This document shows, one piece after another, positions 7,566 through 40,740 of a DNA stretch of 54,588 bases. Origin of the DNA: Gammaproteobacteria bacterium (lineage in GTDB: Bacteria > Pseudomonadota > Gammaproteobacteria > SZUA-152); NCBI GenBank assembly GCA_050116575.1, contig JASFOJ010000014.1, positions 1 through 54,588 on the forward strand, read 5' to 3'. Numbering within the stretch: the stretch's first letter is position 1; each line of letters starts with the position of its first letter. A program made the translations under genes and the position numbers. A model generated the notes under the pieces. It was not told where the DNA came from, did not search any database, and saw only the letters and a list, made by a program, of their open reading frames with translations.

Positions 7566-7666
7566 AATTATGCGTTTGCGGTCCGGACAAACCATGACCA
7601 TTAGTACAGCCCGCGACATGTACTCAGGGCCGCTCCCTTAACTCGTAACGTGCGCCGTGCGCACGG

Positions 7667-8947
7667 TTGCCTCTGAAATTTAGTTGGCCCGCAACCAACC
7701 GGTGGACTTTCCCGGCAAAAGCGATTACTTTACGCATGAATTCCCGGCCCGGGCAAGGCCACGCATCCATCGATCATGAGACTTTCAATAAAACCCCAAT
7801 CAATAACTTATGGTGCTTCGTGAATATCGTTCTCAATCCCACATCAACCGCCAAACAATCAAAAAGCCAGCTGCAGGCGCGTTTCGACAAGCTGCGGCAA
7901 CAACTGCTGAAACAACAAAAACTTAACCAAAAATTCCAGGAAGATCTGGACGAACTGGTGACAATATATCAAACCGAGCTGGCACAAATGGACAGCAAAC
8001 AGGTTGAGCCCCTGACCCGGCTTACCGAAAAACTGATCGATTTCATGGGCCGCAAGAGCCTGTCCAACTGGCACCGGGAAGAGCTGGGGGACTGGATCAT
8101 CGAGACCATCAGCCGCATCGGCCGGGTGGACCCCGAAACCGCCGATAAACTGCACCGCCGGGTACGCCAACTGGTGGCCAGTCAGATGGGCATGACCGAA
8201 GAAGAAATGGATGAAGAAGCGCAGCAATTTGCCGAGTCTATGAAAGAAGCGTTTGAATCCGTTGGAGAAACGGAATCATCGGGGGCGGGCGCCGACTTCG
8301 ATGACGACGATCCTCAGGAGGATATGTTCGGCTTCGACGATGTCTTCGAGGATTGGGACGTGGATGACGATTTTGCCGAAAACAATGACCCTTTTGGTGG
8401 CAAAGCCCCGGACACCGATGAACGCCGCCGGCGGCTCATGGATGGTTCATGGGCACGCACGTTATTCCGGCGCGCCGCCCAGGCCCTGCACCCGGACCGC
8501 GAACAGGACCCCGAACAACGCCAGGCCAAGGAACGCTCCATGCAGCAACTGCTCGAAGCTCGCAACCAGGGTGACATCCTGACCCTGTTGCATCTGTACA
8601 GCGAGGGCGCTGGTGTCGACGACCTGGTGCTGGCCGAACAGGAAATGAAAAGCGCCTGTCAATTAATGGAGGAACAACTGAATGACTTACGTAATGAACA
8701 GTCCGATTTCATTTACGACCACCCACTGCGAATGCTGGTCCACGACCTGTTCTACAGCAGTTCGCGCAAAACCCGCGAGAAAAATATCCACTTATGGAAA
8801 CAAGACCTGAAAGCCGAGGCACAACTAACATCGGAGCTCGTGGGCGAACTGCGCAACCTCAAGGTGCTGAAGGAAATCCTGGAGGAACGCCGCGAGGAAC
8901 GGTATTTTCGTGACTTTGAAGAGATGTTTGACGGCCTGTGGAAATAA
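7667..8947 (+). CDS. J-domain (HPD motif) containing protein with coiled-coil and acidic tract; start uncertain
   Basis: The segment LFRRAAQALHPDREQDPEQRQAKERSMQQLLEARNQGDILTLLHL resembles a DnaJ J-domain helix II-III with HPD; a long D/E-rich stretch is present. Confidence 0.45.
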   Translation: MPLKFSWPATNRWTFPAKAITLRMNSRPGQGHASIDHETFNKTPINNLWCFVNIVLNPTSTAKQSKSQLQARFDKLRQQLLKQQKLNQKFQEDLDELVTIYQTELAQMDSKQVEPLTRLTEKLIDFMGRKSLSNWHREELGDWIIETISRIGRVDPETADKLHRRVRQLVASQMGMTEEEMDEEAQQFAESMKEAFESVGETESSGAGADFDDDDPQEDMFGFDDVFEDWDVDDDFAENNDPFGGKAPDTDERRRRLMDGSWARTLFRRAAQALHPDREQDPEQRQAKERSMQQLLEARNQGDILTLLHLYSEGAGVDDLVLAEQEMKSACQLMEEQLNDLRNEQSDFIYDHPLRMLVHDLFYSSSRKTREKNIHLWKQDLKAEAQLTSELVGELRNLKVLKEILEERREERYFRDFEEMFDGLWK

Positions 8948-20001: not shown

Positions 20002-20636
20002 GCACTCAAATTATCCGATGCCCGATCTGTCTGTTGTCGCAACCTGTCAAAAGCGACGTCTCGCCGGATAAAATCCTGCATTGTGGTAACTGTCGCCGGG
20101 ATTTTGCGGTGAAAAACGGACTGCCGTTAAAAGAAAATATAATCCCTGGTACAGCGCCCGCAACAACAGCCGCCTCCTCGATAACAGGTATCAGTAACAT
20201 GGAACCGGCGACAACGCGAAACGCCGTGGTGACATGGATACTTGGTTTGATTATCGGACTTGTGGTTATCAAAACGTCACGATCTTATGTCGCCCCACTC
20301 GATGGACCGCATTTTTTAGTCTTTTACTTACTGTTTTTTGTTGGCGTGTGGGCGTCACTCGCCGTTATGCGAAATTTATGGGAAGACTCGGTACACGTCA
20401 CCTTGATCGCGTTATTTGTCTTTGAAGCAATCGGCCTTTTTCGTTTCCTTGATGCCAGTGCGGCGGGCATGCACAAGTTCGGCTTTTTGTTCATGATGAT
20501 GGCGATCGGAGCGATATTGCTGTTCACGCGCTATGATCATTCCCGCAACAGCGATGAGTACGGCTCGAGTTGCAGTGGCTGCAGCAGTTGCAGCGGCTGC
20601 GGCAGTGGCGGAGGTTGTGGCGGATGCGGCGATTAG
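19998..20636 (+). CDS. Zinc-ribbon plus 4-TM membrane protein with C-terminal Cys-repeat tail ending in Asp (candidate MNIO substrate); start GTG 19998 or ATG 19977
   Basis: N-terminal CPIC...CGNC ribbon, hydrophobic helices, and the tail SSCSGCSSCSGCGSGGGCGGCGD. There is a GGAG 8 nt before the GTG, and the GTGA overlaps the upstream stop. Confidence 0.55.
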   Translation: MSTQIIRCPICLLSQPVKSDVSPDKILHCGNCRRDFAVKNGLPLKENIIPGTAPATTAASSITGISNMEPATTRNAVVTWILGLIIGLVVIKTSRSYVAPLDGPHFLVFYLLFFVGVWASLAVMRNLWEDSVHVTLIALFVFEAIGLFRFLDASAAGMHKFGFLFMMMAIGAILLFTRYDHSRNSDEYGSSCSGCSSCSGCGSGGGCGGCGD

Positions 20637-21412
20637 GGGTGGGGTATCGTCAGCCGTTGGCCCACTGGATCAACACTCATCCGGCGCAACTCAATTGCCT
20701 GGAAATCACCGCAGAACATTTTTTTGATGATGCGTCAAAACTGGCGGCATTAGGGTCATATTATGATTTATTCGTCCACGGTTTGGGTCTATCGCTGGGC
20801 ACACCCGGTCCACTTGACAAGTCGTATTTAGATCGCTTTAAGACGGTCTGTGAGATAGCCCAGCCATTGTGGATAAGTGAACACATTGCGTTTACGCGAG
20901 CGGCTGACATCGATCTCGGTCATCTTAACCCGATACCCTACACACCGGATACACTGGCTTACTTTGTCGAACACGCCCTGGAACTCAAGGCACATTGCCA
21001 ACGGCCACTGCTACTGGAGAACGTCACCTCGCACATCGCAATCCCCAGCCCGTTATCGGAGACCGCTTTTATCAATGCGCTATGTCAACAGGCCGGCTGT
21101 GGCTTATTGCTCGATGTCACCAATTTACTGGTGAATAGCCGCAATCATGGCTATTCGCCTACGCAGTGGTTACGGGAAATCCATCCAGATTTCATCAAGC
21201 AATTGCATATTGTTGGATATAGCCAAAGCAATGGTACCTTTTTTGACTCTCATGCGAACAATATTCAACAGGACCTGTATCAACTAACCCGGCAGGTCAT
21301 TGATTACTCACAGGTGGATTCCATCATTATTGAACGTGACCATAACTTTCCATCTACTCTACAGCTGGAACAGGAACTTGCTAACCTGGAGCGTTGTTTT
21401 GACATCCATTGA
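20624..21412 (+). CDS. DUF692 / multinuclear non-heme iron oxidase (MNIO, MbnB/TglH family)
   Basis: GVGYRQPLAHWI (GlGlR motif), EHIAFTR...DLGHLNPIPYT, LLENVTSHI, GCGLLLDVTNLLVNSRNHGY and IVGYSQ all match the DUF692 TIM-barrel family; the ORF-track start at 20570 is trimmed to the Met just before the GlGlR motif. Confidence 0.88.
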   Translation: MRRLGVGYRQPLAHWINTHPAQLNCLEITAEHFFDDASKLAALGSYYDLFVHGLGLSLGTPGPLDKSYLDRFKTVCEIAQPLWISEHIAFTRAADIDLGHLNPIPYTPDTLAYFVEHALELKAHCQRPLLLENVTSHIAIPSPLSETAFINALCQQAGCGLLLDVTNLLVNSRNHGYSPTQWLREIHPDFIKQLHIVGYSQSNGTFFDSHANNIQQDLYQLTRQVIDYSQVDSIIIERDHNFPSTLQLEQELANLERCFDIH

Positions 21413-29130: not shown

Positions 29131-29571
29131 TTACTCTTGACCGGGGTGTACTTTACGACGTTGCGCCTTACGTTCACTGTTCCGACGTTTTTGTTCCAGG
29201 CGGTCATTATTCTCCGCAAATGAACGTTTTCGTTTCAGCCGAGGCTTGCGGCGCTCTGCGGCTTTACAAATCAACTCGCACAGACGCTCGATCACTTCAC
29301 GCTTATTGCGTGCCTGTGACCGATGACGTCGTGCGGTAATAACAAGTTGGTAGTCGTTGTTGACCCGTGATCCGCCCAACTGAATCAAACGCTGTTGCAC
29401 GGTATACGGCAATGAGGGAGATTGAATAATATCAAAACGCAATTGGACAGCCGTCTGGTTCTTATTGACGTGCTGGCCACCCGGGCCGGATGCGGTCAGG
29501 GCCTTAAAGTTCAGCTCCTCATCGTCGATCACGATGGAATCGGTAACGTGTACGGGGTTTCCCATGTTCAT
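29131..29571 (-). CDS. arfB: Peptidyl-tRNA hydrolase ArfB (alternative ribosome rescue factor B)
   Basis: A GGQ motif (SGPGGQHVNKNQTAVQLRFDI) and a basic C-terminal tail; ~140-aa size typical of ArfB/YaeJ. Confidence 0.8.
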   Translation of the reverse strand: MNMGNPVHVTDSIVIDDEELNFKALTASGPGGQHVNKNQTAVQLRFDIIQSPSLPYTVQQRLIQLGGSRVNNDYQLVITARRHRSQARNKREVIERLCELICKAAERRKPRLKRKRSFAENNDRLEQKRRNSERKAQRRKVHPGQE

Positions 29572-32301: not shown

Positions 32302-33633
32302 TTAGTTAATTTTCACCAAACCATTCATCAGTCCTTCAAGGCCACCGAAAACAGACAAGTTACCGACTTTTTCAGTGACTTTTTCCAACGTTTCCAGCTC
32401 TTTCAAGCGTAGCGCCGTTGGGTTGTCTTCCATGACTTTGGCGGTGTTCAACATTGAACGTGTGGCCGCCGTTTCTTCGCGACGTCGAATGGAGTTCGCT
32501 TGTGCGGCTTTTTCAGCTTCGACCACTTGGGCCAGAATGGTTTTCATATCACCTGGCAGGATAATATCTTTCACACCTACATCAGCGATAGAAATACCGA
32601 CATCCGCGGTTTTGGCCTTGATGTGCGCCAACACGCTATCATCGATGACCGTTTTATCTTCAAGCAACGCATCCAACGTACGTGTACCCACGGCCGCGCG
32701 CAAACCAAATTGCAGTTCACGGCGCACGTAGTCGTTGACGTCAGCCAATTTTGACGTTGCCGCCATCACATCCGTGATGCGGTAGCTGCAAGACAAGTTG
32801 ATACGCAGGTTTACCTTGTCTTTGGTCAAAATTTCCTGACCGGCGACGTCCATGTCTTGTACACGAGTATCGAACAATTCAATACGGATATTACGATTGA
32901 ACTTCCAGTACGCGTGCAGACCTGGCGTCAATGTACCTGCCGTTGCACCATCCACGTACAGAACACCTACGTTGTATTCTGGCACATGACGGAAGTACAC
33001 GGCGTGGATCATGGAGTCACGCAACAGACCACGGTCGGCGAACACCAGTTCGGCTGCCAGCCGTGATTCGATGGCGAAGTCATCCGCGATATCGATTACT
33101 TTGGCCTCAACGTCCACCAGTCCTTTCCAGAACAGCGTGCGCGTTGATGGACCCAGCACGTAGGCCAGGCGGCGATTTTTGAAGATCAATGCCACTTGCG
33201 TTGCGTTCAATTCCACGATATCGAAGCGTTTTGCCACTTCGCCCGCAAATTGTTTGATCAACAGGTCGGTCAAGCGGTGCTCGAACTCCGGTACGCTCAG
33301 GTCAAAAACCTCCACGTCGATTTTACGCAGTGGATCCAGGAAGTGGTACGTACCCGCATCCAGGAAGCGTACAAAATCCCCGTTTTTAAACAGCAATCCG
33401 CGTTCATTTTTTTTCACTATAAATTTACGTACTACCAACATTGTCTTACTCCCATTGTCCCTGTTACCACTCACTGGTTGTTTCACGTTCACCGCCTTGT
33501 CAGCGCCTGAAATGCCCTTATTTGTTAAACTTGAGTTCACACGCACAGAAGCCGGTTTGCCTCGATGCCGCTGTGAAATAAGGGCGGCCGTTTCTCCGAT
33601 TGTGCGTTGTGTGTTCATCGTAGAGTCCTTCAC
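32302..33633 (-). CDS. SPFH/band-7 (stomatin/HflKC-like) domain protein
   Basis: SPFH core and a C-terminal coiled coil (EAEKAAQANSIRRREE...); the N-terminal start is uncertain. Confidence 0.75.
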   Translation of the reverse strand: MKDSTMNTQRTIGETAALISQRHRGKPASVRVNSSLTNKGISGADKAVNVKQPVSGNRDNGSKTMLVVRKFIVKKNERGLLFKNGDFVRFLDAGTYHFLDPLRKIDVEVFDLSVPEFEHRLTDLLIKQFAGEVAKRFDIVELNATQVALIFKNRRLAYVLGPSTRTLFWKGLVDVEAKVIDIADDFAIESRLAAELVFADRGLLRDSMIHAVYFRHVPEYNVGVLYVDGATAGTLTPGLHAYWKFNRNIRIELFDTRVQDMDVAGQEILTKDKVNLRINLSCSYRITDVMAATSKLADVNDYVRRELQFGLRAAVGTRTLDALLEDKTVIDDSVLAHIKAKTADVGISIADVGVKDIILPGDMKTILAQVVEAEKAAQANSIRRREETAATRSMLNTAKVMEDNPTALRLKELETLEKVTEKVGNLSVFGGLEGLMNGLVKIN

Positions 33634-34002
33634 GTTTTATATATCATACAATCTAGTTAGTGGTGTCACTTCCACACCATTGCAGCGGGTGATAATTTGC
33701 GAATCACCGGGTTTGATCGGAACGTGACGCCGCAGTATCCCGTAACCCGAATAACTTCAAGCTACTGTCAACGTTAGCGAAACGTTGCGAAAAAACCGGG
33801 TAAATCCGTACCCGTTATCACACAGGCCCAATGGTGCTGTGTGAGCAACAGCGGTTCGGCATCAACTGCCTGCCTATTTCGCTACTGTCACACCGGAAGT
33901 GACATCCGGTGGTTTGGTTTCCTCTCGTACTCCCAAGGTGTCTTTACCTAAGACCAAAGAGGGGACTCGAACCCCAGACCGTTAAAGGGTCTTTACCATA
34001 GT

Positions 34003-34075
34003 TGCTTAGACAGGATTTGAACCTGCTACCTCACGATTTTCCGTCGTGTGCTCTACCCAATGAGCTACAAAGCAC
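34003..34075 (-). pseudogene. tRNA-Phe-like gene (anticodon GAA but G33, acceptor-stem mismatch, no CCA)
   Basis: Cloverleaf derivable by eye: D-arm GCTCATTGGGTAGAGC, anticodon arm CACGA-CGGAAAA-TCGTG, T-arm GCAGGTTCAAATCCTGT. The defects suggest decay. Confidence 0.35.
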
Positions 34076-34342
34076 TGGTGTGAATAGCCTTCTCCATAAC
34101 GGTACACGTCAATCAATTTTCAGATCCAACGCGCCAGCCAGGTATACAGAACCATCGCCGCTGTTACAAGTAAGACGCATACTCACTCTGTAAAGGGTTT
34201 GTGTTTTTCTTTACACAATCCACTTAATTTCTTTAATGCTCCCTCCTTTTCAACCGAGGGTTGGGGGGGGTTATTACATTAATCCTAGAATCAAATCCCC
34301 CTTCATTCTCCATTTGTAAAACGGGAAGTACCTCACCATTAA

Positions 34343-34906
34343 TCAAATCCAACGACAGTGTTTCGTAAATCCGGCTTTCAAAAATTCCATTTGATCGGCC
34401 AGGATTCTGCCGCTGTTGCGCAATGCCAGATATTCGGCATGGTTCGGTGTATGCGGCAACGCCAACAACTGCAAATTGCATTCTTCCGGCAAACGATCGC
34501 CTTTGTAATGGTTGCATCGTTTGCAGGCTGCCACGACGTTGGTCCAGGTGTTTTTACCGTTCCGTGACCGTGGAATCACGTGATCACGGGTCAGCTGCTG
34601 AGCGTTAAACTCACGACCACAATACATACACAGATGTCGGTCACGTCGAAACAATTCCTGGTTGGTCAACGGTGGTACTGAGCGAACACGAATGGTTTTA
34701 TCCACGCCTTTCACTGCAACGATCGAATGGATATCCACAAACGAGCGTTGGCTGGTCACACGGTTGACACCACCGTGGAACCGAAAACGATGTTCGCCCG
34801 CCGTCCAACCGATACGCTCTTTGGCATACAACATCACGGCGTCTTGCCAATGCATCCAGCCCAACGGCTGACCCGCCATATCCAAACGCAAAATCAATGG
34901 AACCAC
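34343..34906 (-). CDS. HNH endonuclease (start GTG preceded by GAGGAG; ORF-track extension to 35050 runs into tRNA-Leu and is rejected)
   Basis: C-terminal CMYCGREFNAQQLTRDHVIPRSRNGKNTWTNVVAACKRCNHYKG HNH motif. Confidence 0.75.
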   Translation of the reverse strand: MVPLILRLDMAGQPLGWMHWQDAVMLYAKERIGWTAGEHRFRFHGGVNRVTSQRSFVDIHSIVAVKGVDKTIRVRSVPPLTNQELFRRDRHLCMYCGREFNAQQLTRDHVIPRSRNGKNTWTNVVAACKRCNHYKGDRLPEECNLQLLALPHTPNHAEYLALRNSGRILADQMEFLKAGFTKHCRWI

Positions 34907-34964
34907 GCTTTTCTCCTCATACTCTATCGATACCTTTAACAAGTTGGGAAGTACCATTATTAAT

Positions 34965-35050
34965 TGGTGTGCCCGGTCAGATTCGAACTGACATTGCCAT
35001 TTGGGCATAGGGTTTGAGCCTATTGTGTCGGCCAATTGCACCACGGGCAC
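34965..35050 (-). tRNA. tRNA-Leu(CAA)
   Basis: Acceptor GTGCCCG/CGGGCAC, anticodon arm ATAGG-CTCAAAC-CCTAT, long variable arm, T-arm with TTCGAAT, encoded CCA. Confidence 0.85.
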
Positions 35051-35248
35051 ATTTTGCGAATTGGCGGAAGAGATAGGGCGAGCAACGGGTTAAGGAGTCG
35101 CGAGCGCCAAGTCATGGATGACTTGGCTGGACTTTCGCGCGAAGCATGGATAGCGAAGCGCGAAAGCGAACCTATAAATCCCTACCAGGGATCCACTGGT
35201 TAGCAACCAGCTGCCTTGCCATTCAGCCACTCTTCCGACTTATCGATT

Positions 35249-35336
35249 TGGTGCGTGCGGAGGGATTGGAACCCTCATGCTCGAACGGAGCGGCGGATTT
35301 TAAATCCGCTGTGTTTGGCGGCTCCACCACGCACGC
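35249..35336 (-). tRNA. tRNA-Leu(UAA), D-loop lacks GG
   Basis: Acceptor GCGTGCG/CGCACGC, anticodon arm GCGGA-TTTAAAA-TCCGC, long variable arm, CCA end. Confidence 0.8.
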
Positions 35337-35356
35337 AGCACCTACATTTATGTATT

Positions 35357-35432
35357 TGGTTGTGACAATTGGAGTCGAACCAATATCTTCAAGGGTATGA
35401 GCCTTGCGCTTTGCCAGTTAAGCTATGTCACA
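35357..35432 (-). tRNA. tRNA-Met or Ile2 (anticodon CAU)
   Basis: Canonical cloverleaf; anticodon arm CAAGG-CTCATAC-CCTTG. Confidence 0.85.
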
Positions 35433-35445
35433 ACTTCTACAACAT

Positions 35446-35521
35446 TGGCACCCTTGGTAGGATTTAAACCCACATCTGTCGAGGTAGAAGCTCGATGCTT
35501 TGTTCATTAAGCTACAAGGGT
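35446..35521 (-). tRNA. tRNA-Arg(UCU)
   Basis: Anticodon arm TCGAG-CTTCTAC-CTCGA; canonical D and T arms. Confidence 0.85.
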
Positions 35522-35539
35522 GTAGTTAATCAATGTATT

Positions 35540-35615
35540 TGGTGCCCCCGGCAGGATTTTCGCCTGCAACCTACCGCTTAAAAGGCGATTGCTCTTGATG
35601 TTGAGCTACGAAGGC
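35540..35615 (-). tRNA. tRNA-Lys(UUU) with atypical T-loop CGAAAAT
   Basis: Anticodon arm ATCGC-CTTTTAA-GCGGT; acceptor with two G-U pairs; the T-loop lacks TTC. Confidence 0.75.
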
Positions 35616-35642
35616 AATATTTCTATTTTTAAAAGAATAAAT

Positions 35643-35717
35643 TGGAGGTGCGGGCCGGAATTGCACCGACGAAAAGTTGGTTTGCAACCAACTGCATTGC
35701 TACTCTGCCACCGCACC
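35643..35717 (-). tRNA. tRNA-Cys(GCA)
   Basis: Anticodon arm GTTGG-TTGCAAA-CCAAC, discriminator U, CCA. Confidence 0.8.
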
Positions 35718-35718
35718 G

Positions 35719-35865
35719 TGGCACCTCGAGCAGGAGTCGACAATTTTGTATGGAGCAAAATTGGTCGAACTTTAGTTCACCCGTAGGGCGCAAGCCATGG
35801 ACGGCTTGCGACAGCCCACACCCACTGTTTTGGAGGCAGTTGTTCTACCGTTAAACTATCGAGGC
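35719..35865 (-). ncRNA. Elongated tRNA-Trp(CCA)-like gene carrying the ~80-nt three-hairpin module (copy A) between 5' T-stem and T-loop
   Basis: The 5' half GCCTCGA-TA-GTTT-AACGGTA-GAAC-A-ACTGC-CTCCAAA-ACAGT closely parallels E. coli tRNA-Trp. It is followed by GTGGG, the module, GTCGACT-CCTGC, TCGAGGT-G-CCA. Confidence 0.55.
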
Positions 35866-35877
35866 ACAATCTTTTAT

Positions 35878-35952
35878 TGGTAGGGGATCCTGGACTTGAA
35901 CCAGAACTCTGAGCTTCAAAGACTCGTGTGCTGCCGATTACACCAATCCCCT
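35878..35952 (-). tRNA. tRNA-Gln(UUG)
   Basis: Anticodon loop CTTTGAA; acceptor AGGGGAT/ATCCCCT; CCA. Confidence 0.75.
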
Positions 35953-35967
35953 ATCGGTTATTAAACT

Positions 35968-36043
35968 TGGCACGCCCACCAGGACTTGAACCTGGATCTC
36001 TCACATTCGTAGTGTGAGGCTCTCGCCATTGAGCTATAGGCGT
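35968..36043 (-). tRNA. tRNA-Arg(ACG)
   Basis: Anticodon arm TCACA-CTACGAA-TGTGA; canonical. Confidence 0.85.
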
Positions 36044-36045
36044 TT

Positions 36046-36120
36046 TGGTTGACGTGGTCAGAATCGAACTGACAACCTTCTGTTTGTAAGACAGACGCTC
36101 AACCATTGAGCTACACGCCA
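36046..36120 (-). tRNA. tRNA-Val(UAC)
   Basis: Anticodon arm TCTGT-CTTACAA-ACAGA; canonical. Confidence 0.85.
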
Positions 36121-36138
36121 TTTGATTTGTATAAAACG

Positions 36139-36232
36139 TGGCGGAAGGTGGAGGGCACGATCCCCAAACGGTGTTTCACGTTCCACTGGTTTTCAAGACC
36201 AGGCCAACGCCCATCGCGTCAGGTTACCTTCC
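36139..36232 (-). tRNA. tRNA-Ser(UGA)-like, class II, degenerate T-arm
   Basis: Acceptor GGAAGGT/ACCTTCC, anticodon arm CTGGT-CTTGAAA-ACCAG, long variable arm; the T-loop is not canonical. Confidence 0.55.
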
Positions 36233-36301
36233 TTACCTGTTTTACATACGTTCGCAATATAGAATTGTTTTGTGATGTTGTTTGTTGCAGTCTTTTAGAT
36301 T

Positions 36302-36358
36302 ACGATTGACGACGCACTTTCACCAAAGCTGCTAGTTGTTTTTTGGATAATTTCATTG
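36302..36358 (-). CDS. Candidate 18-aa ORF MKLSKKQLAALVKVRRQS with strong SD (GAGGAGGG) inside the tRNA array
   Basis: RBS and ATG spacing seen in the sequence; no other support. Confidence 0.2.
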
Positions 36359-36375
36359 CATCGCCCTCCTCTATT

Positions 36376-36451
36376 TGGCACGCCCGGAAGGATTCAAACC
36401 TTCGACCCCTTGGTTCGAAGCCAAGTACTCTGTTCACTGAGCTACGGACGT
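36376..36451 (-). tRNA. tRNA-Arg(UCG)
   Basis: Anticodon arm CTTGG-CTTCGAA-CCAAG; canonical arms. Confidence 0.75.
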
Positions 36452-36465
36452 ATGTGGCATTAAAT

Positions 36466-36542
36466 TGGTAGCGCGGGTGAGATTCGAACTCACAACATCC
36501 AGTTTCTAAGACTGGCGCGTCTGCCCATTGCGCCACCGCGCC
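36466..36542 (-). tRNA. Class I tRNA with anticodon UAG (Leu codon CUA) but short variable arm
   Basis: Anticodon arm CCAGT-CTTAGAA-ACTGG, 5-nt variable loop, A73; bacterial tRNA-Leu is normally class II. Confidence 0.6.
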
Positions 36543-36561
36543 GCTATACGACAAATAAGTA

Positions 36562-36639
36562 TGGGGCGACCGACGAGGTTCGAACTCGTATCCTCTCGGT
36601 TCACAGCCGAGGACTTTAGCCGGTTAAGCTACGGCCGCC
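36562..36639 (-). tRNA. tRNA-His(GUG) with encoded G-1
   Basis: Extra 5' G pairing with C73; anticodon arm CTCGG-CTGTGAA-CCGAG. Confidence 0.85.
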
Positions 36640-36661
36640 ACTAATTAACTTACAAATAATT

Positions 36662-36754
36662 TGGAGCGGGTAATGAGACTTGCACTCATAACCTCAACGT
36701 TGGCAACGTTACGCTCTTCTCATTGCACCCTCCGGGCATAAAAGCTATACCCGC
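36662..36754 (-). tRNA. tRNA-Gly(GCC) with ~18-nt D-loop expansion (UUAUGCCCGGAGGGUGCAAU)
   Basis: Acceptor GCGGGTA/TACCCGC with U73; anticodon arm TAACG-TTGCCAA-CGTTG. Closely parallels E. coli tRNA-Gly(GCC) apart from the insertion and the TGCAAGT T-loop. Confidence 0.6.
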
Positions 36755-36761
36755 AGTAAAT

Positions 36762-36856
36762 TGGTCTGGACGACAGGCCGCTCTTGAGCATCCCTGCTCT
36801 GGCGGCACTTGTGCATCCAAGCACATCGGATTCGAACACGATCCATACAGTTTTGT
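36762..36856 (-). pseudogene. tRNA-Pro 3'-end relic (duplicate of the last ~20 nt of tRNA-Pro, T-arm missing)
   Basis: aattggtctggacgacagg nearly repeats aatttggtctgggcgacagg at 36858; the upstream part lacks T-arm and anticodon features. Confidence 0.4.
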
Positions 36857-36860
36857 AATT

Positions 36861-36939
36861 TGGTCTGGGCGACAGGATTTGAACCTATGGCCTCTCGGTT
36901 CCAAACCGAGTGCTCTGCACAGACTGAGCTACACCCAGA
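36861..36939 (-). tRNA. tRNA-Pro(UGG)
   Basis: Anticodon arm CTCGG-TTTGGAA-CCGAG; canonical. Confidence 0.85.
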
Positions 36940-37049
36940 AAGATCACCAACGATGCACGTTGGCGGCACAGCTGTTGTCCTGCAGTTGTGCTCCCACACC
37001 TTTTACGGCGGTGGTATACCGGCGACAGGGAGTGTCGCGCTCCTGCTAT

Positions 37050-37197
37050 TGGTTGCCCTATCAGATTCGACAATTCTGACGGGATCAGAATTGGCCGCGC
37101 TTTAGCGCGCCCGGCAGGGTACGGGCCATGGATGGCCCGTAACAGCTGATCACCGCACGATTATCAGTCGTGTGCTCTGCCACTGAGCTAAAGGGCA
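37050..37197 (-). ncRNA. Elongated tRNA-Ile(GAU)-like gene carrying module copy C
   Basis: The 5' half TGCCCTT-TA-GCTC-AGTGGCA-GAGC-A-CACGA-CTGATAA-TCGTG is canonical. T-stem ATCAG then the module then TTGTCGAAT-CTGAT then AGGGCA-A-CCA. Confidence 0.5.
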
Positions 37198-37365
37198 TTG
37201 GCGAACCGGACGGGGTTATTCCGCACATCCATGTGCTCCACCCTTTGGGCCGTCGCTTCGCGACGTTCAAATTTGCTCCCGGCAAATTTGTCGAACCCGC
37301 AATGTCATCTCGACACCAGGTTGAAGGCCTGGCCGCTTTGTCCACTTTGCATACCGGTTCATCGT

Positions 37366-37442
37366 TGGCGACCATGACCGGCAATGATCCGGCATCTTCC
37401 ACCTTGACAGGGTGGCGCTTTCCCAAGTTAAGCTACATGGCC
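37366..37442 (-). tRNA. tRNA-Asp(GUC) with atypical T-loop
   Basis: Anticodon arm CCACC-CTGTCAA-GGTGG; acceptor GGCCATG/CATGGTC; T-loop ATCATTG. Confidence 0.7.
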
Positions 37443-37449
37443 TTTAAAT

Positions 37450-37521
37450 TGGTGGAGTGATTCGGAATCGAACCGAACCCGATCGCTTGCAAGGCGTTCA
37501 GTGCGACCCATCGCCCACCCC
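37450..37521 (-). ncRNA. Short tRNA-like gene (anticodon UGC-like) with mini D-arm (GCGA-TGG-TCGC)
   Basis: Acceptor GGGGTGG/TCACTCC with G-U pairs, T-arm TTCGG-TTCGATT-CCGAA, CCA; the D-loop is only 3 nt. Confidence 0.4.
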
Positions 37522-37543
37522 GTATGAAACAAGTGCAATTAGT

Positions 37544-37629
37544 TGGCTGAGAAGGTCGGACTCGAACCGACATTGAGTTCTCACTCACGGGTTAACAGCC
37601 CGCTGCATTACCTGGTCTGCCACTTCTCA
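37544..37629 (-). tRNA. Class II (long variable arm) tRNA with anticodon GUU (Asn codons)
   Basis: Acceptor TGAGAAG/CTTCTCA, D-stem GCA/TGC, anticodon arm GCGGG-CTGTTAA-CCCGT, 15-nt variable arm GAGTGAGAACTCAAT, T-arm GTCGG-TTCGAGT-CCGAC. Confidence 0.6.
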
Positions 37630-37637
37630 TTATCATT

Positions 37638-37714
37638 TGGTGCAGCGAAATGGATTCGAACCACTATCGCCCTGGGCTTCAACCAGGCGCTCTACCCATT
37701 GGAGCTATCGCTGC
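37638..37714 (-). tRNA. tRNA-Phe(GAA)
   Basis: Anticodon arm CCTGG-TTGAAGC-CCAGG; canonical D and T arms. Confidence 0.85.
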
Positions 37715-37720
37715 GAAATT

Positions 37721-37982
37721 TGGTGGAGCACGGAAGGCCGCTCTCGCAGATCCCTCGGCTATGGCTCCTGCTTCGCCCTACCTCCTGCATCCATGCAGTC
37801 GTGTGCTTCGCGGCACCTGTGCATCCATGCACAATGGAATCGACAATTTTGTCCGGAACAAAATTGGTCGAACTTTAGTTCGCCCGTAGGGCGCGAGCCA
37901 GGGATGGCTCGCGACAGCCTCTTGCCCGAAGGGCCTGGGCTACAACCAGGCCGTGGACCATCCACGCTTATTGACATGCTCC
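37721..37982 (-). ncRNA. Long tRNA-like RNA with Tyr-type anticodon arm (GUA), mini D-arm, module copy B and two GCATGGATGCA hairpins before a CCA end
   Basis: GGCCTGG-TTGTAGC-CCAGGCC anticodon arm, GTGGA-TGG-TCCAC mini D-arm, the module at 37840-37919, 3' CCGTGCTCCACCA; boundaries are uncertain. Confidence 0.4.
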
Positions 37983-37994
37983 AATACGCTTTTG

Positions 37995-38160
37995 TGGTTT
38001 ACTAAGGTCGGTTTCACCCCACCGACTCCCGAATCCGGTTTTTCAACCGTCGAACCGACTTTACTTACCCTTGCACACCCAGGCAGAAATGAATGGAGTA
38101 ACAACGGGTTTCGGTTACAACCTGGTGCTGCCACACCACTTAGTAAACCCAAAAACATAC
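37995..38160 (-). ncRNA. Structured RNA closed by 11-bp terminal helix (GGTTTACTAAG / CTTAGTAAACC) with CCA after the helix; tRNA-like acceptor
   Basis: Inverted repeat between 37996-38007 and 38136-38147, seen directly; the internal fold is unresolved. Confidence 0.3.
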
Positions 38161-38175
38161 GCACTAAAAAACAAT

Positions 38176-38269
38176 TGGTGCCGAAAGTAGGACTTGCACC
38201 CACAACCGTCTGCTTACAAGGCAGCTGCTCTGCTAAATTGCACCCAAAGGGCATAAAAGCTATTTCGGC
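38176..38269 (-). tRNA. tRNA-Thr(UGU)-like with the same D-loop expansion as the Gly(GCC) gene
   Basis: Acceptor GCCGAAA/TTTCGGC, D-loop TTATGCCCTTTGGGTGCAATTTAGCA, anticodon arm GCTGC-CTTGTAA-GCAGA, T-loop TGCAAGT. Confidence 0.55.
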
Positions 38270-38271
38270 AC

Positions 38272-38366
38272 TGGTTGTCCCGGCAGGACTTGAACCTACA
38301 ACTCGCGCTAATCTGGCGCTTTCCCAAGGTATAAGCTTGGCGTTTTACCAATTAAACTACGGGACA
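38272..38366 (-). tRNA. Class II tRNA with anticodon UAU (Ile AUA codon)
   Basis: Acceptor TGTCCCG/CGGGACA, D-arm GTTT-AATTGGTA-AAAC, anticodon arm CCAAG-CTTATAC-CTTGG, ~24-nt variable arm with GCGC stem. Confidence 0.55.
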
Positions 38367-38385
38367 CCTAATCATGTGCAGCCTC

Positions 38386-38559
38386 TTATGCCAGTTCTCT
38401 GGCCAACGCAAACGCTGCATCAAAGTTTCGATGTATTCGGTTCTGTATTGCGCCGTTACGTAAAAACCATCGCACGTTAGGCTGGCTGAAGGATTTCCTA
38501 GCCGCCGGCAGATTCATGGTTTTAATGAGGCGCTCATAGCGTTGCGCTTTCGTGTACAT
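38386..38559 (-). CDS. Candidate 57-aa ORF (MYTKAQRYERLIKTMNLPAARKSF...) with strong SD GGAGGTGA
   Basis: RBS and ATG at the edge of the tRNA array; no homology recognised. Confidence 0.3.
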   Translation of the reverse strand: MYTKAQRYERLIKTMNLPAARKSFSQPNVRWFLRNGAIQNRIHRNFDAAFALARELA

Positions 38560-38606
38560 AACACTCACCTCCTTTTCAATACGACCTGTTCCACATCAGC
38601 AAAAAT

Positions 38607-38755
38607 TGGTGCGGGCAGACAGAGTCGACAATTCTGACAGGATCAGAAATGGTCGCACTTTAGCGCGCCCGATAGGGTGCGGGCCATGGATGGCCCGCAA
38701 CAACTGTCATCTTCTGCTTGGAAAGCAGGTGTTCTACCATTGGACTATGCGCGCA
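38607..38755 (-). ncRNA. Elongated tRNA-Gly(UCC)-like gene carrying module copy D
   Basis: 5' TGCGCGC-ATA-GTCC-AATGGTA-GAAC-A-CCTGC-TTTCCAA-GCAGA, then the module, then TTGTCGACTCTGTC-TGCCCGC-A-CCA. Confidence 0.5.
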
Positions 38756-39278
38756 CATCAGGATGTCATGTTGCCTGTCCGATCTATCACCTTAGACAGG
38801 CAACACATCACCTAGTCATCACCATAAGTGATGACAAAAATGGTACTTCCCAACTTGTTAAAGAACATCGCTAAGTCAGCTTGTGCTTAACGGGGGCACA
38901 AAAAAAGCCCCGGCATTTATCGCGTTTGCGATACCTACCGAGGCTTTATGGTTCTTTCCTGCGGAAGGTGTCGCTTGTGGCCTCACCTTCCGCGCGCGAT
39001 TTCGCGAAAAGTTACCTCATACCGGCCTCATCATTACTGAGCTGATCATGCTTAAACTGTACGGGCACAATCCCCGTGGTTTGCTTACCCCACAAACACA
39101 CAGCATCACTTTTTGACGGGCATATATACCCCATGGTCAGTCGCCGATAACGGCTGACCGATGTCTGAGTGTGTTGTATGGATAATGGTTTCATGTCGCT
39201 ACGCTCGTTTATGTCTATCTGCTAATTTACTTTTGTTAGATTTTATCTCGTAACCTTTTTCTCAATTCATTCATGCAA

Positions 39279-39690: not shown

Positions 39691-40284
39691 ATGAAAACGC
39701 CCGACAAAAACCCCACCGCGTTAAAGATCGGCAACCGTATCAAACAAGCACGGAAAATGGCGGGCTTTGAGACAGCCGCGCAACTCAATAAACACCTAAC
39801 CGATTGGTCTGCCTCGCGATTAGGCAACTATGAAGCGGGTATATCGACCCCCTCGCCCGATGATATCGACCGCATCGCGCAATTGACCGATGCCTCACCT
39901 TGCTGGATTACCTTTGGTATCGGACCGATTCGCGCCTCCATGCGCGATGTCCAGGCAATCCGTCATCAAAACCTGGTATATCTTGTCGACCAGGCGAAAA
40001 AATCCAAGAAAATGAAGCCCCTGATCACCACACTCGGAATATCCCAAAAGAAACTGGACGAACACCTCGACAATCCTTTCATGAATATCACAGACCGGAT
40101 CGCCAGACGATGCGAGAAATTCCTGAAAAAATCGCATGGCTGGATGGATGAACAACACGTGGAATCCGACCCTGTGTGTGCGGCTTTCCCAGAGGACATG
40201 CGAGAAGTCATGGAGATTTATTCCAACCTCGAACCTGAAGAGAGGGACAGGTTTCTACGGATAGCCAGGGCATTTACTGAATAG
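39691..40284 (+). CDS. XRE-family helix-turn-helix transcriptional regulator with unknown C-terminal domain
   Basis: N-terminal IGNRIKQARKMAGFETAAQLNKHL...SRLGNYEAG Cro/C1-type HTH. Confidence 0.7.
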   Translation: MKTPDKNPTALKIGNRIKQARKMAGFETAAQLNKHLTDWSASRLGNYEAGISTPSPDDIDRIAQLTDASPCWITFGIGPIRASMRDVQAIRHQNLVYLVDQAKKSKKMKPLITTLGISQKKLDEHLDNPFMNITDRIARRCEKFLKKSHGWMDEQHVESDPVCAAFPEDMREVMEIYSNLEPEERDRFLRIARAFTE

Positions 40285-40612: not shown

Positions 40613-40740
40613 TAATTGGGCAAGTAGCTCAGCGGTAGAGCACCGGGCTTATTTACTCTTCGCTTCTCGCACCAAGAGTTCCTAATTGATCTAACCCGGA
40701 GGTCGCAGGTTCGACTCCTGCCTTCCCTGCCCGTTTTTCG
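40613..40740 (+). ncRNA. tRNA-like gene interrupted by ~46-nt insertion in the anticodon loop; no encoded CCA
   Basis: GGGCAAG-TA-GCTC-AGCGGTA-GAGC-A-CCGGG-CTT[insert with ACTCTT/AAGAGT hairpin]CTAA-CCCGG-AGGTC-GCAGG-TTCGACT-CCTGC-CTTCCCT; the 3' end is followed by a GCCCG-TTTTT-CGGGGC hairpin. Confidence 0.45.

Follow-up and report, generated by a model that had tools for sequence, protein, structure and literature searches.

The window analysed here, a contig stretch of 54,588 nt, carries between positions 33925 and 38760 on the minus strand 28 full-length tRNA or tRNA-like genes and 2 fragments that together cover all 20 amino acids, a count that rests on alignment to orthologous arrays (cited below by L numbers, as are the other sequences compared) and agrees with the approximately 30 same-strand genes of the original prediction. 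ARAGORN called 18 minus-strand tRNAs (34001 to 38366), and 20 sites on this strand scored at or above the gathering threshold of the Rfam tRNA model, which gave sub-threshold matches at 5 others (36143-36232, 36665-36737, 35161-35236, 35793-35865, 38179-38252). Spacers are 2-25 nt, as predicted, wherever neither an insertion nor a small ORF intervenes; chance cannot explain such tRNA density. The cassette is ordered as XRE-type repressor, array, HNH endonuclease, tRNA, tRNA-like leader and SPFH-RtcA-RtcB-ArfB, the repressor gene being transcribed divergently from the ~3.9-kb co-oriented tRNA block. Its protein genes, repeats and non-tRNA elements are:

39691..40284, plus: XRE/DicA-like HTH regulator (Pfam HTH_31/HTH_3; NCBIfam DicA-like), probable repressor of the cassette; an HTH_31 gene lies at the equivalent position in L013, L014, L020, L025 and L027
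38840..38864, minus: 5' arm of a 25-nt perfect inverted repeat (CTTTAACAAGTTGGGAAGTACCATT)
38386..38568, minus: small ORF (60 aa) inside the array, strong Shine-Dalgarno sequence
37985..38170, minus: structured non-tRNA block, ~175 nt, conserved in L013, L018, L023 and L027
36940..37049, minus: second non-tRNA block, conserved in L013, L017, L023 and L027
36300..36356, minus: mini-ORF (18 aa) with Shine-Dalgarno sequence, start region kept in L017, L023 and L027
34934..34959, minus: 3' arm of the 25-nt perfect inverted repeat
34343..34918, minus: HNH endonuclease, 191 aa (Pfam HNH_5, 1.7e-18; HNH; HNH_4)
33925..33995, minus: tRNA-like element conserved in relatives, a hairpin with a T-arm, lying in the SPFH-rtcB operon leader
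32302..33633, minus: SPFH/Band-7 protein (Pfam Band_7, 1.2e-30), position shared by L013, L019, L025 and L027
31140..32174, minus: RtcA, RNA 3'-phosphate cyclase (Pfam RTC, 1.7e-81), lacking in L019 and L027
29662..30858, minus: RtcB RNA ligase (Pfam RtcB, 3.2e-132), 91% identical to the L019 gene at the matching position
29131..29571, minus: ArfB, ribosome-rescue peptidyl-tRNA hydrolase (NCBIfam NF006718, 136.9 bits, cut-off 100; Pfam RF-1 domain)

The inverted repeat brackets the tRNA block, and the same pair occurs in L027, L025 and L028; in L002 it is a 28-nt pair with 5 changes, each mirrored in both arms. The HNH gene, correctly anticipated as embedded in the array, has more than 2,500 homologs and keeps its position in all related arrays. 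The 60-aa ORF has only 12 homologs among 5.8 billion proteins, and each of the 5 contigs fetched for these (5 of 12) carries a related array. The RNAalifold consensus fold of the 37985..38170 block has 60 pairs, of which 12 are compensatory, with G·U pairs common, and an Rfam search gave no match. The leader element at 33925..33995 had been described as a tRNA fragment with anticodon UUA reading ochre codons. It is a real element kept in all relatives, its stem covarying, and received no tRNA call from ARAGORN or Rfam; its 7-nt loop differs in every relative, and a role in reading ochre codons is not supported.

The tRNA genes without insertions are listed from upstream to downstream.

38272..38366, minus: tRNA-Ile(UAU), 95 nt, long variable arm (ARAGORN; Rfam 59.9 bits), a form also found in L013, L017 and L027
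37638..37714, minus: tRNA-Phe(GAA), intact (ARAGORN, Rfam); the L020 and L023 orthologs carry module A
37544..37629, minus: type-II-like tRNA, 86 nt, anticodon GUU, discriminator G73 (ARAGORN; Rfam 55.3 bits), where relatives have an ordinary 75-nt tRNA-Asn
37450..37517, minus: tRNA-Ala(UGC), mini D-arm, 68 nt (ARAGORN), almost identical in L013, L017, L020, L023 and L027
37366..37442, minus: tRNA-Asp(GUC), T-loop ATCATTG (ARAGORN, Rfam)
36861..36938, minus: tRNA-Pro(UGG), intact (ARAGORN, Rfam)
36562-36638, minus: tRNA-His(GUG), intact (ARAGORN, Rfam)
36466-36542, minus: tRNA-Leu(UAG), intact (ARAGORN, Rfam)
36376-36451, minus: tRNA-Arg(UCG), intact (ARAGORN, Rfam)
36143-36232, minus: tRNA-Ser(UGA), ancestral T-loop ATCGTGC (Rfam sub-threshold; ortholog comparison)
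36046-36120, minus: tRNA-Val(UAC) (ARAGORN, Rfam)
35968-36043, minus: tRNA-Arg(ACG) (ARAGORN, Rfam)
35878-35952, minus: tRNA-Gln(UUG) (ARAGORN, Rfam)
35643-35717, minus: tRNA-Cys(GCA) (ARAGORN, Rfam)
35543-35615, minus: tRNA-Lys(UUU), T-loop CGAAAAT (ARAGORN, Rfam)
35446-35521, minus: tRNA-Arg(UCU) (ARAGORN, Rfam)
35357-35432, minus: tRNA-Met(CAU) (ARAGORN, Rfam)
35249-35336, minus: tRNA-Leu(UAA) (ARAGORN, Rfam)
34965..35050, minus: tRNA-Leu(CAA), final gene inside the bracketed block (ARAGORN, Rfam)
34001..34074, minus: post-HNH tRNA, anticodon loop CGGAAAA (GAA, G33), no encoded CCA (ARAGORN, Rfam)

All 15 identities named in the original prediction were recovered. It did not include Leu-UAG, Ala-UGC, Asn-GUU, Ile-UAU or the second GAA gene, nor did it say what the interrupted genes are (Gly-UCC, Tyr-GUA, Glu-UUC, Ile-GAU, Trp-CCA, Thr-UGU, Gly-GCC, Ser-GCU). 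The gene at 34001-34074 had been taken for a Phe-like pseudogene; instead it is orthologous to a tRNA whose anticodon in relatives is GAU, CAU or UGU. The aberrant forms that had been pointed out (elongated module hosts, mini-D-arm tRNAs and T-loops lacking TTC) are all present and, judged by sequence comparison, are of two kinds: the mini-D-arm Ala, the long variable arms of Ile-UAU and Glu-UUC and the TTC-less T-loops are oddities ancestral to the family, unlike the elongated members, which are new and produced by derived insertions. The most informative result, overlooked before, is the derived nature of the module, an insertion that close relatives lack.

The insertions occupy ten sites; they are small and hairpin-rich, fall into at least 4 classes and are absent from orthologous genes of related arrays, as itemised below. 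Module A (73-74 nt, four helices) lies exactly between T54 and T55 (T/TCGA, the slash marking the junction) in Gly-UCC, Tyr, Ile-GAU and Trp, and without it the T-loop is again 7 nt long; A', a reverse-oriented variant, lies in Glu. Module B (~55-100 nt) is found after Pro and in the Tyr T-stem 3' strand, the 17-nt module C in the D-loop of Thr and Gly-GCC at AGCT/CAAT, and module D (~86 nt) in the Ser-GCU T-arm. Scores marked R1 refer to a module-A covariance model, which found 21 copies.

38607..38754, minus: tRNA-Gly(UCC), module A in T-loop (38629-38702) (Rfam partial match; cmsearch with R1, 96.6 bits); filled also in L020, empty in L013, L023 and L027
38176..38269, minus: tRNA-Thr(UGU), 17-nt module C in D-loop (38241-38257), T-loop TGCAAGT; empty in L017, L020 and L027, filled in L023
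37721..37982, minus: tRNA-Tyr(GUA), modules A (~37844-37916, T-loop) and B (~37738-37836, T-stem 3' strand) (R1 103.6 bits); both sites empty in L017, L013, L023 and L027, A without B in L020
37199..37359, minus: tRNA-Glu(UUC), long variable arm and C33 (both ancestral), reversed A' after T-loop A58 (37215-37294; R1 plus-strand match, 39.1 bits, E 4e-8); filled also in L020, empty in L013, L017, L023 and L027
37050..37197, minus: tRNA-Ile(GAU), module A (37072-37145) (R1 99.7 bits); empty in L013, L017 and L027, filled in L023
36762..36860, minus: ~100-nt insertion after tRNA-Pro, a T-arm-like piece plus a module-B copy; missing in L013, L017, L023 and L027
36662..36754, minus: tRNA-Gly(GCC), 17-nt module C in D-loop (36726-36742), T-loop changed to TGCAAGT; empty in L017, L023 and L027
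35719..35865, minus: tRNA-Trp(CCA), module A (35742-35814) (R1 95.3 bits); empty in L013, L017 and L027, filled in L023
35062..35236, minus: tRNA-Ser(GCU), ~86-nt module D in T-loop/T-stem region (35078-35163), ATCCAT-loop hairpins; empty in L013, L019 and L027, the module D element also lying within L023 Arg-UCU

The insertion after intact Pro-UGG, read originally as a tRNA-Pro 3' relic, terminates in a duplicated Pro 3' end (CCTGTCGTCCAGACCA), and a direct repeat of that end flanks it. Across 9 copies of module A, 97.8% of cells are paired and 12 of 25 pairs show compensatory changes, values reached by 0 of 500 shuffles. Its stems are strand-symmetric and, with 412 WC against 3 G·T and 4 A·C pairs, almost entirely Watson-Crick, whereas the neighbouring structured block 37985..38170 has many G·U pairs. 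In the minimum-free-energy fold of Gly-UCC the cloverleaf stems are retained and the module forms a separate domain.

We interpret the insertions as DNA palindrome elements that were mobile until recently. They appear derived and mobile because filled and empty sites differ between close arrays, the sets of filled sites being different among arrays ~90% identical (window, L020, L023). Action at the DNA level is indicated by the reversed variant, by module-A copies outside tRNAs (L009 and L010, between mnmG and a moxR-like gene), by tandem units and duplicated tRNA 3' ends (L004, L005 and the post-Pro insertion), by the strand-symmetric stems, and by ATCCMT-loop hairpins in both orientations, 9 of the window's 10 lying in the array and none occurring in module-free arrays. 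Their targets would be TCGA and AGCT, short palindromes within conserved tRNA-gene motifs, and they would probably spread between tRNA genes by break repair or gene conversion, possibly triggered by HNH, or alternatively by a single-strand transposase acting in trans; HNH is equally present in module-free arrays and so is not sufficient for insertion by itself. Interrupted tRNAs would probably not function, except where the insert is removed or can be tolerated.

It is also possible that the insertions are intron-like, and several observations count against mobile DNA. A search of the 54-kb window found no transposase, RAYT or integrase. All tRNA-associated module-A insertions (at least 9 independent) run in sense and both A' insertions in antisense, a one-orientation bias that random hits on a palindromic target would not predict. 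At most filled sites C replaces T54 (the Tyr site has T in L020 and C in the window), which could reflect selection at the transcript level for a C-G closing pair. Interrupted-gene exons do not exceed uninterrupted genes in divergence from L027 (identity ~0.93 vs ~0.91). Weighing both sides, we put at roughly 0.68 the probability that this region represents a single copy of an L-array (long accessory tRNA array) cassette able to transfer horizontally, with insertions that are recently mobile DNA.

The accessory and transferable character of the array follows from orthologous cassettes occupying unrelated neighbourhoods with their order kept: HTH repressor, array, HNH, SPFH and RtcB recur together in metagenomic contigs with wholly different flanking genes, and the tRNA order is common to the window, L013, L017, L025, L027 and L028, whose flanking genes differ. 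This recurrence, with the HNH and rtcB linkage, supports the original view of an accessory array over a housekeeping operon. Most members receive standard identities and normal scores (at least 48 bits in 19), an outcome named beforehand as half of what would speak against that view. Within the 54-kb window no phage structural genes or integrase were found, and the rest of the window looks like bacterial chromosome.

The locus is a known kind of cassette, a transferable spare tRNA set with RNA-repair genes. L-arrays spread horizontally, contain a conserved HNH gene and are frequently linked to rtcB (PMC8421152), and the window cassette shares with them the HNH and rtcB linkage; the TrcR stress regulon contains HNH, rtcB and slipin (SPFH) genes together (PMC10272220). 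If it behaves like the trn operon of Anabaena, the array block would stay silent and turn on once translation is impaired, when it would provide spare tRNAs while RtcB would reseal cleaved tRNA and ArfB would free stalled ribosomes.

Sequence reading and alignment to orthologous arrays resolve the minus-strand array into 28 full-length tRNA or tRNA-like genes and two fragments, in line with the ~30 members of the original prediction; the 28 genes are packed with operon-like spacing on one strand within ~3.9 kb. ARAGORN reports 18 tRNA genes (34001-38366, minus strand only), and the Rfam tRNA model reaches its gathering score at 20 minus-strand sites, with five weaker matches (36143-36232, 36665-36737, 35161-35236, 35793-35865, 38179-38252). 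All 20 amino acids are covered, by ~27 anticodons with a single gene per anticodon. A repeat search of the array returned generic tRNA similarity and a set of small hairpin-rich insertions in its tRNA genes, here called modules, with no periodic pattern. Many members are structurally aberrant and ~10 are interrupted, and the aberrant types picked out earlier (elongated module hosts, mini-D-arm tRNAs, T-loops lacking TTC, a Pro 3' relic) were correctly identified; most uninterrupted members have normal ARAGORN and Rfam scores. The embedded HNH endonuclease gene is likewise borne out, and its position is the same across all related arrays.

Array content in minus-strand order
First: Gly-UCC, Ile-UAU, Thr-UGU, Tyr-GUA, Phe-GAA, Asn-GUU, Ala-UGC, Asp-GUC, Glu-UUC, Ile-GAU
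After Ile-GAU: Pro-UGG, Pro 3' relic
Then: Gly-GCC, His-GUG, Leu-UAG, Arg-UCG, Ser-UGA, Val-UAC, Arg-ACG, Gln-UUG, Trp-CCA
Then: Cys-GCA, Lys-UUU, Arg-UCU, Met-CAU, Leu-UAA, Ser-GCU, Leu-CAA
Last: HNH gene (34343-34918, minus strand, Pfam HNH_5, 1.7e-18), GAA tRNA, tRNA-like fragment

Three-way and four-way alignments of arrays separate ancestral oddities from new ones. Those common to all relatives belong to the array family: a 68 nt Ala-UGC with a mini D-arm; Ile-UAU (95 nt) and Glu-UUC (88 nt, C33), both with long variable arms; T-loops lacking TTC in Lys, Ser-UGA, Thr and Asp; and two non-tRNA blocks and two small ORFs. The first block (~175 nt, 37985-38170, minus strand, between Thr-UGU and Tyr-GUA) is found again in the related loci L013, L023 and L027, and the distant array L018 has it too. 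Of the 60 pairs that RNAalifold assigns to it, 12 have compensatory changes; G·U pairs are numerous. It has no Rfam match (gathering score, E<=5) and is a candidate new array-associated ncRNA. The second (36940-37049, minus strand, between Ile-GAU and Pro-UGG) is common to L013, L017, L023 and L027 and contains a terminal hairpin, CGCCAACG...CGTTGGTG. At the same Rfam thresholds (gathering score, E<=5) neither the conserved blocks nor the modules match a known family. Both small ORFs, on the minus strand inside the tRNA block (38386-38568, 60 aa; 36300-36356, 18 aa), have strong ribosome-binding sites and are kept in relatives; homologs of the 60 aa protein number only 12 across the protein collection, and every contig fetched for them carries an array of the same family. 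At 37544-37629 (minus strand) the GUU-anticodon gene is an 86 nt Ser-like type II tRNA with a long variable arm and G73, at a position where relatives hold an ordinary 75 nt tRNA-Asn; if charged by SerRS, it would misread Asn codons.

Two elements follow the HNH gene. What the original prediction called a Phe-like pseudogene (34001-34074) does have a GAA anticodon (loop CGGAAAA, G33), and it is the ortholog of a post-HNH tRNA whose anticodon is GAU in L025 and L027, CAU in L019 and UGU in L013; on the aligned sequences, this is an anticodon shifting on a conserved body. The 33925-33995 element had been read as a UUA-anticodon fragment decoding ochre, an identity we reject because its loop is different in every ortholog; it also lacks a D-arm and an acceptor stem. 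In all relatives it persists, within the SPFH-rtcB operon leader, in the form of a hairpin with a T-arm, and its stem covaries (AGACC/GGUCU versus AAACC/GGUUU). It is predicted to be a tRNA-like leader element and no suppressor tRNA, and is perhaps a processing signal.

The window as a whole is a bacterial chromosome segment (feoB, iPGM, a PIF1-type helicase, an M48 peptidase, lemA, a flotillin gene, yqiJ, pspA). Directly 3' of the array on the same strand are genes for an SPFH/Band-7 protein, RtcA, RtcB, an RF-1-domain protein (ArfB by NCBIfam) and a PcfJ-like gene, and a divergent XRE/DicA-like HTH gene lies upstream; a promoter and terminator scan gave nothing above background. Relatives were fetched through homologs of the HNH protein and of the array-embedded 60 aa ORF (L013, L017, L019, L020-L023, L024, L025/L026, L027-L030, all numbered loci from other genomes or metagenomes). 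The closest named relatives are Gammaproteobacteria MAGs, and a further locus, L002, belongs to an Ectothiorhodospiraceae MAG. The relatives share the tRNA genes and their order with the window, as well as the HTH-array-HNH-SPFH-RtcB layout, but their flanking genes are unrelated (DEAD helicase, Fic protein, BREX-like genes, RHS toxin, others), with orthologous cassettes in unrelated flanks found at L013, L014, L018, L020, L024 and L025. Similarity between the window and L020 stops ~140 nt past the HTH gene, at ~40425. The same cassette within unrelated flanks supports an accessory, transferable array, the interpretation originally offered.

About 190 nt past the end of this similarity is a plus-strand tRNA (40618-40729, Rfam 57 bits), probably Arg-UCU, with a ~40 nt insertion in its anticodon loop (CT[...]TCTAA), and it may mark the site of cassette integration. 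A 25 nt perfect inverted repeat (~38840-38864 and ~34934-34959) brackets the tRNA block exactly and leaves the HNH gene outside; L002 has a 28 nt version with five differences, each in both arms. The repeat may form a processing stem in the RNA, like those of rRNA operons, or it may mark a mobile unit by its terminal repeats. Elsewhere in the window, a plus-strand gene for an MbnB/TglH/ChrH-family RiPP-modification enzyme (20570-21412, Pfam 2.2e-69) suggests a RiPP biosynthetic locus unrelated to the array.

L-arrays are extended tRNA gene arrays that hold up to 43 genes, show no periodicity and spread horizontally; they have a conserved neighbouring HNH endonuclease gene and frequent rtcB linkage or co-regulation (PMC8421152). 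The Anabaena array is silent until translation is impaired (PMC8421152), and an HNH gene and rtcB belong to the Anabaena stress regulon (TrcR), as does a gene for a slipin (SPFH) (PMC10272220). As far as sequence can test them, the window array matches each feature of this class: its RNA-repair and translation neighbours are RtcA, RtcB, ArfB and SPFH, and the unrelated flanks of the cassette agree with patchy distribution and horizontal acquisition. The array is a new member of this known class. L-arrays are poorly understood, and the family described here is a complete conserved cassette (repressor, inverted-repeat-bracketed array, HNH, SPFH, RtcB, ArfB), which lends support to the notion of a portable kit for translation emergencies. 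The more distant family array L018 is flanked (6682-8600 and 11885-12301) by genes for Tpt1/KptA (RNA 2'-phosphotransferase), a second EF-Tu and an ArfB-like RF-1-domain protein, which broadens this theme.

Phages carry tRNA clusters with homing endonucleases (PMC8421152), and the array could in principle be part of a prophage or phage-derived tRNA island providing anti-defence against anticodon nucleases. We consider this improbable. No phage structural or replication gene, integrase or transposase occurs among the 39 window ORFs scanned with Pfam, across 54 kb. The flanks are ordinary chromosomal genes (feoB, iPGM, pspA, flotillin), no phage record covers >3% of the region, and the module pattern is absent from IMG/VR, where a scan for module A gave chance matches only. 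In favour of a phage source, the phage database shares similarity with the region, at the level of single tRNAs only. PADLOC detects no known defence system, and HNH similarity is generic only. A housekeeping tRNA operon is more improbable still: coverage of 20 amino acids and normal scores for most uninterrupted members would suit one, but each of the ~27 anticodons has one gene, many members are aberrant and ~10 interrupted, the cassette occupies different genomic contexts among relatives, and HNH plus rtcB linkage is typical of accessory L-arrays.

Colonisation of the array's tRNA genes by nucleotide-precise structured mini-insertions appears to be undescribed; the literature searched does not describe T-loop or D-loop insertions in bacterial tRNA arrays or L-arrays. 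These discrete insertions, 17-100 nt long and in D- and T-arm positions, are confined to the window and the two relatives nearest to it.

Insertions in the window array
38629-38702: module A (73-74 nt), T-loop of Gly-UCC
~37844-37916: module A (73-74 nt), T-loop of Tyr
37072-37145: module A (73-74 nt), T-loop of Ile-GAU
35742-35814: module A (73-74 nt), T-loop of Trp
37215-37294: module A', a diverged, reversed variant of A, T-loop of Glu; plus-strand match to R1, the covariance model of module A (39 bits, E 4e-8)
Tyr: module B, 3' strand of the T-stem
After Pro: further copy of module B, inside a ~100 nt insertion whose end is a duplicate Pro 3' end
Thr and Gly-GCC: module C, the 17 nt hairpin TTTATGCCCNNNGGGTG, at AGCT|CAAT in the D-loops
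Ser-GCU: module D (~86 nt), T-arm

An alignment of 9 copies of module A (4 from the window, 1 from a genome scan, at L002, and 4 from a metagenome scan) defines four helices: P1 (8 bp, loop ATCCMT), P2 (CCC/GGG), P3 (5 bp, loop TAAA) and P4 (9 bp, loop TCCNG). In this alignment 97.8% of cells are paired and 12 of 25 pairs are changed on both sides, values that none of 500 shuffles and no slid control came near. The R1 model recognizes 21 copies in total. Helices of the 17 sense copies contain 412 Watson-Crick, 3 G·T, 4 A·C and 6 other pairs; because wobble pairs are nearly absent and about as rare as A·C, the constraint is strand-symmetric, as expected of DNA palindromes (ssDNA hairpins or template-switch correction) and unlike what a selected RNA fold would lead one to expect. 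The ~175 nt block of this array, by contrast, is rich in G·U pairs. MFE folds of three host precursors retain the acceptor, anticodon and T stems, with the module as a separate domain on the T-stem. Hairpins with an ATCCMT loop are the unit common to modules A, A', B and D, and they are found in either orientation; the window has 10, of which 9 lie within the array, and module-free arrays contain none. Those with 8 bp stems are always sense and those with 4-5 bp stems always antisense, and these fixed orientations would make the transcript loops complementary (AUCCAU versus AUGGAU; AUCCCU versus AGGGAU). A closing helix for module A pairing its 5' GTY with an internal GAC was rejected because column 6 covaries with column 27 inside P1, and readings of the module as a nested mini-tRNA or as carrying a CCA processing site (GACCA|AUUU) were dropped as resemblance only.

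Comparison of filled sites (with module) and empty sites (without) places the module A insertion point between T54 and T55: empty sites read ...T|TCGANT... and filled sites ...Y[TGT...ATTG]TCGANT..., and removal of the module leaves a 7 nt T-loop (Y-TCGANT) at every filled site. T54 is C at most filled sites; in the Tyr insert orthologs it is T in L020 and C in the window. Removal of module C likewise restores the D-loop, and empty orthologs exist. The P4 side of module A always abuts TCGA (or TCAA) and module C abuts the 4 bp palindrome AGCT. A' in Glu follows TTCGA; since TTCGAA is palindromic, this site is equivalent, on the opposite strand, to that of module A with respect to TCGA. Module A creates no target duplication, its P1 and P4 hairpins are unlike, and neither TnpA nor a Y1/RAYT domain was seen in the window ORFs scanned. 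For comparison, miniature elements derived from IS200/IS605 (PATE) insert beside a fixed tetranucleotide without target duplication and bear a hairpin at each end.

Arrays whose embedded ORF is 88-89% identical to that of the window differ from it site by site.

State of individual insertion sites in the window and the related loci L020 and L023
Gly-UCC, module A: window filled, L020 filled, L023 empty
Tyr, module A: window filled, L020 filled, L023 empty
Tyr, module B: window filled, L020 empty, L023 empty
Phe, module A: window empty, L020 filled, L023 filled
Glu, reverse A': window filled, L020 filled, L023 empty
Thr, module C: window filled, L020 empty, L023 filled
Gly-GCC, module C: window filled, L020 contig ends, L023 empty

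L020 has extra inserts in Ile-UAU, and in L023 Met contains module B and Arg-UCU contains module D. Module A is absent from the more distant arrays L013, L017 and L024-L030, and is present in two tRNAs of the L002 array. It also adjoins single tRNA-Gly and tRNA-Met genes, where it forms tandem units and partial duplicates of the T-arm (L004, L005, L008), and in L009 and L010 it separates mnmG from a moxR-like gene, away from any tRNA; non-tRNA copies are found in L007, L009 and L010, while all R1 matches in the window fall within the array. Among 185,579 species genomes the module A pattern has one true carrier, the Ectothiorhodospiraceae MAG of L002, plus two chance matches, a count that is a lower bound because the pattern was strict. 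The site-by-site differences and other settings indicate that gain, loss or copying of inserts proceeds quickly in evolutionary terms. Every one of the 9 or more independent module A insertions in tRNAs is sense, whereas the two A' insertions run antisense. In interrupted genes the exons match those of intact genes in conservation, and the array's sole copies of Gly-UCC, Tyr, Trp and Glu are module-bearing. Filled and empty sites in arrays ~90% identical form a rare natural before-and-after series, in which very small structured elements strike single, defined tRNA-gene nucleotides.

In other metagenomes (L004 1-260, L005 410-830) module A occurs in ~165 nt tandem units, each made of a spacer, a 5' T-stem strand, the module and the 3' end of tRNA-Gly(CCC). 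These units adjoin an intact tRNA-Gly(CCC), an arrangement that looks like the outcome of repeated integration, or of duplication, at the 3' end of a tRNA.

The best reading is that the insertions are mobile palindromic DNA, given their strand symmetry, shared hairpins, reverse variant, non-tRNA copies and duplicated tRNA ends; the insertion mechanism and the fate of interrupted transcripts are inferred. Orientation bias, complementary loops, C54 and conserved exons keep intron-like and functional-RNA readings alive. On the intron reading, the four classes of insert would be bacterial tRNA introns of a new kind, mobile between tRNA genes, with an unrecognised nuclease or self-cleavage making the cuts, the adjacent RtcB rejoining the exons and RtcA conditioning the ends; this would amount to protein-dependent tRNA splicing of the archaeal type within a bacterium. 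Families of inserts shared across tRNAs and variably present are a known pattern of non-canonical archaeal tRNA introns (Thermoproteales intron transposition), and here too related inserts occupy different tRNAs at several positions (D-loop, T-loop, T-stem) with varying presence. The exact 7 nt T-loop left by module A at every filled site, the sense orientation of all its tRNA copies, exons without extra decay, the lack of alternative Gly-UCC, Tyr, Trp and Glu genes in the array, and RtcB and RtcA immediately 3' of it all fit such splicing. We nonetheless find introns doubtful. No bulge-helix-bulge (3 nt bulge, 4 bp helix, 3 nt bulge) appears at any junction by inspection and MFE folds of three host precursors, a non-dedicated search in which the module forms a closed domain of several hairpins set directly on the T-stem; no EndA-like (tRNA_int_endo) or other RNA endonuclease occurs among the 39 window ORFs scanned with Pfam; and Rfam gives no ribozyme or group I match, even at E<=5. 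The restored loop would start with C54, not T54, at most filled sites, A' runs antisense to the tRNA that hosts it, some copies lie outside tRNAs altogether, and the stems lack G·U pairs. A tie between RtcB adjacency and the modules was rejected, since the module-free L019 and L027 have RtcB at the same place and RtcB is thus unlinked to modules. Group I tRNA introns are taken here as >200 nt, with a P1-P9 core, in the anticodon loop; the inserts, at 17-100 nt in D- and T-arms and with no Intron_gpI match at E<=5, differ from them.

Somewhat less likely again is that the modules are functional RNA domains grafted on tRNA scaffolds, whose transcripts might, for example, associate by 6 bp kissing loops, AUCCAU/AUCCCU (A, D) with AUGGAU/AGGGAU (B, A'), loosely analogous to GOLLD and ROOL assemblies, which are known near tRNA islands (PMC12286853). 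The sense transcript carries 8 bp-stem hairpins with AUCCMU loops (GUCCAU in Trp), all short-stem hairpins carry the exact loop complement, both kinds occur together in the window, L020 and L023, and the Tyr gene holds both AUCCCU and AGGGAU; loop sequences are kept while stems vary, and GOLLD is found within the related L002 array. One DNA motif in two orientations, however, equally predicts complementary loops, the stems are strand-symmetric and almost without G·U pairs, L013 has the AKGGAU kind only, and module presence varies among near-identical arrays, with most relatives module-free. As selfish DNA, the inserts would define a new class of miniature element specific to tRNA genes and would illustrate the decay of accessory arrays. 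Were they removed or used in the RNA instead, bacteria would have their first tRNA introns outside group I, or their first tRNA expansion domains, and the widespread bacterial RtcB would have a substrate; true introns would mean protein-dependent tRNA splicing in Bacteria, with RtcB having a splicing role besides repair.

Several known systems resemble parts of this one. Phage T4 SegB is a GIY-YIG enzyme. It is free-standing, lies beside a tRNA cluster and is reported to cut within tRNA genes (PMC8421152). Both systems have a homing endonuclease gene adjoining clustered tRNA genes, and SegB-like cutting could plausibly lead to inserts being copied between tRNA genes by break repair, but the window HNH, in this putative role, is also present in module-free arrays. 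Archaeal non-canonical tRNA introns (Thermoproteales) are short D-loop, T-loop and T-stem inserts in hosts with an RtcB ligase available. They are alike in insert positions, in related inserts across tRNAs, in variable presence and in available RtcB, but the window host is bacterial, with no bulge-helix-bulge or EndA found, and its modules have an antisense variant and non-tRNA copies. Rickettsia palindromic elements insert inside genes, RNA genes included. With these and with REP/BIME/REPIN elements the modules share small palindromic units, mosaic structure, both orientations and compensated, strand-symmetric arms; they differ, as far as the window goes, in that all copies lie inside the tRNA genes of one array rather than being spread intergenically, in nucleotide-precise insertion (T54|T55, AGCT|CAAT), in keeping loops while stems vary, and in that no RAYT gene was seen in the ORFs scanned.

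The Acidithiobacillus ICEAfe1 and Mycobacterium (GOLLD) arrays are likewise accessory and on mobile or patchily distributed DNA (PMC8421152, PMC12286853). L002 contains a GOLLD RNA (RF02032, 150.7 bits, E 1e-40; 1877-2360, minus strand) with an embedded tRNA-Arg(CCG), inside the module-bearing array of this Ectothiorhodospiraceae MAG. The window has no GOLLD or ROOL match in Rfam at gathering score or E<=5, and has instead the other conserved structured block of ~175 nt. Also alike are L-arrays such as the trn operon of Anabaena sp. PCC 7120, with 20 to 40-plus co-oriented, non-periodic tRNA genes, patchy, horizontally transferred distribution and some pseudogene or non-canonical members (PMC8421152), and with a linked HNH endonuclease gene and rtcB and SPFH/slipin linkage or co-regulation (PMC8421152, PMC10272220). 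The regulator in the window is of the XRE-type HTH kind, whereas Anabaena TrcR is a ribbon-helix-helix protein (PMC10272220). Unlike described L-arrays, the window cassette has RtcA and ArfB physically linked, its tRNA block is bracketed by the 25 nt inverted repeat, and ~10 of its genes are interrupted by small structured insertions.
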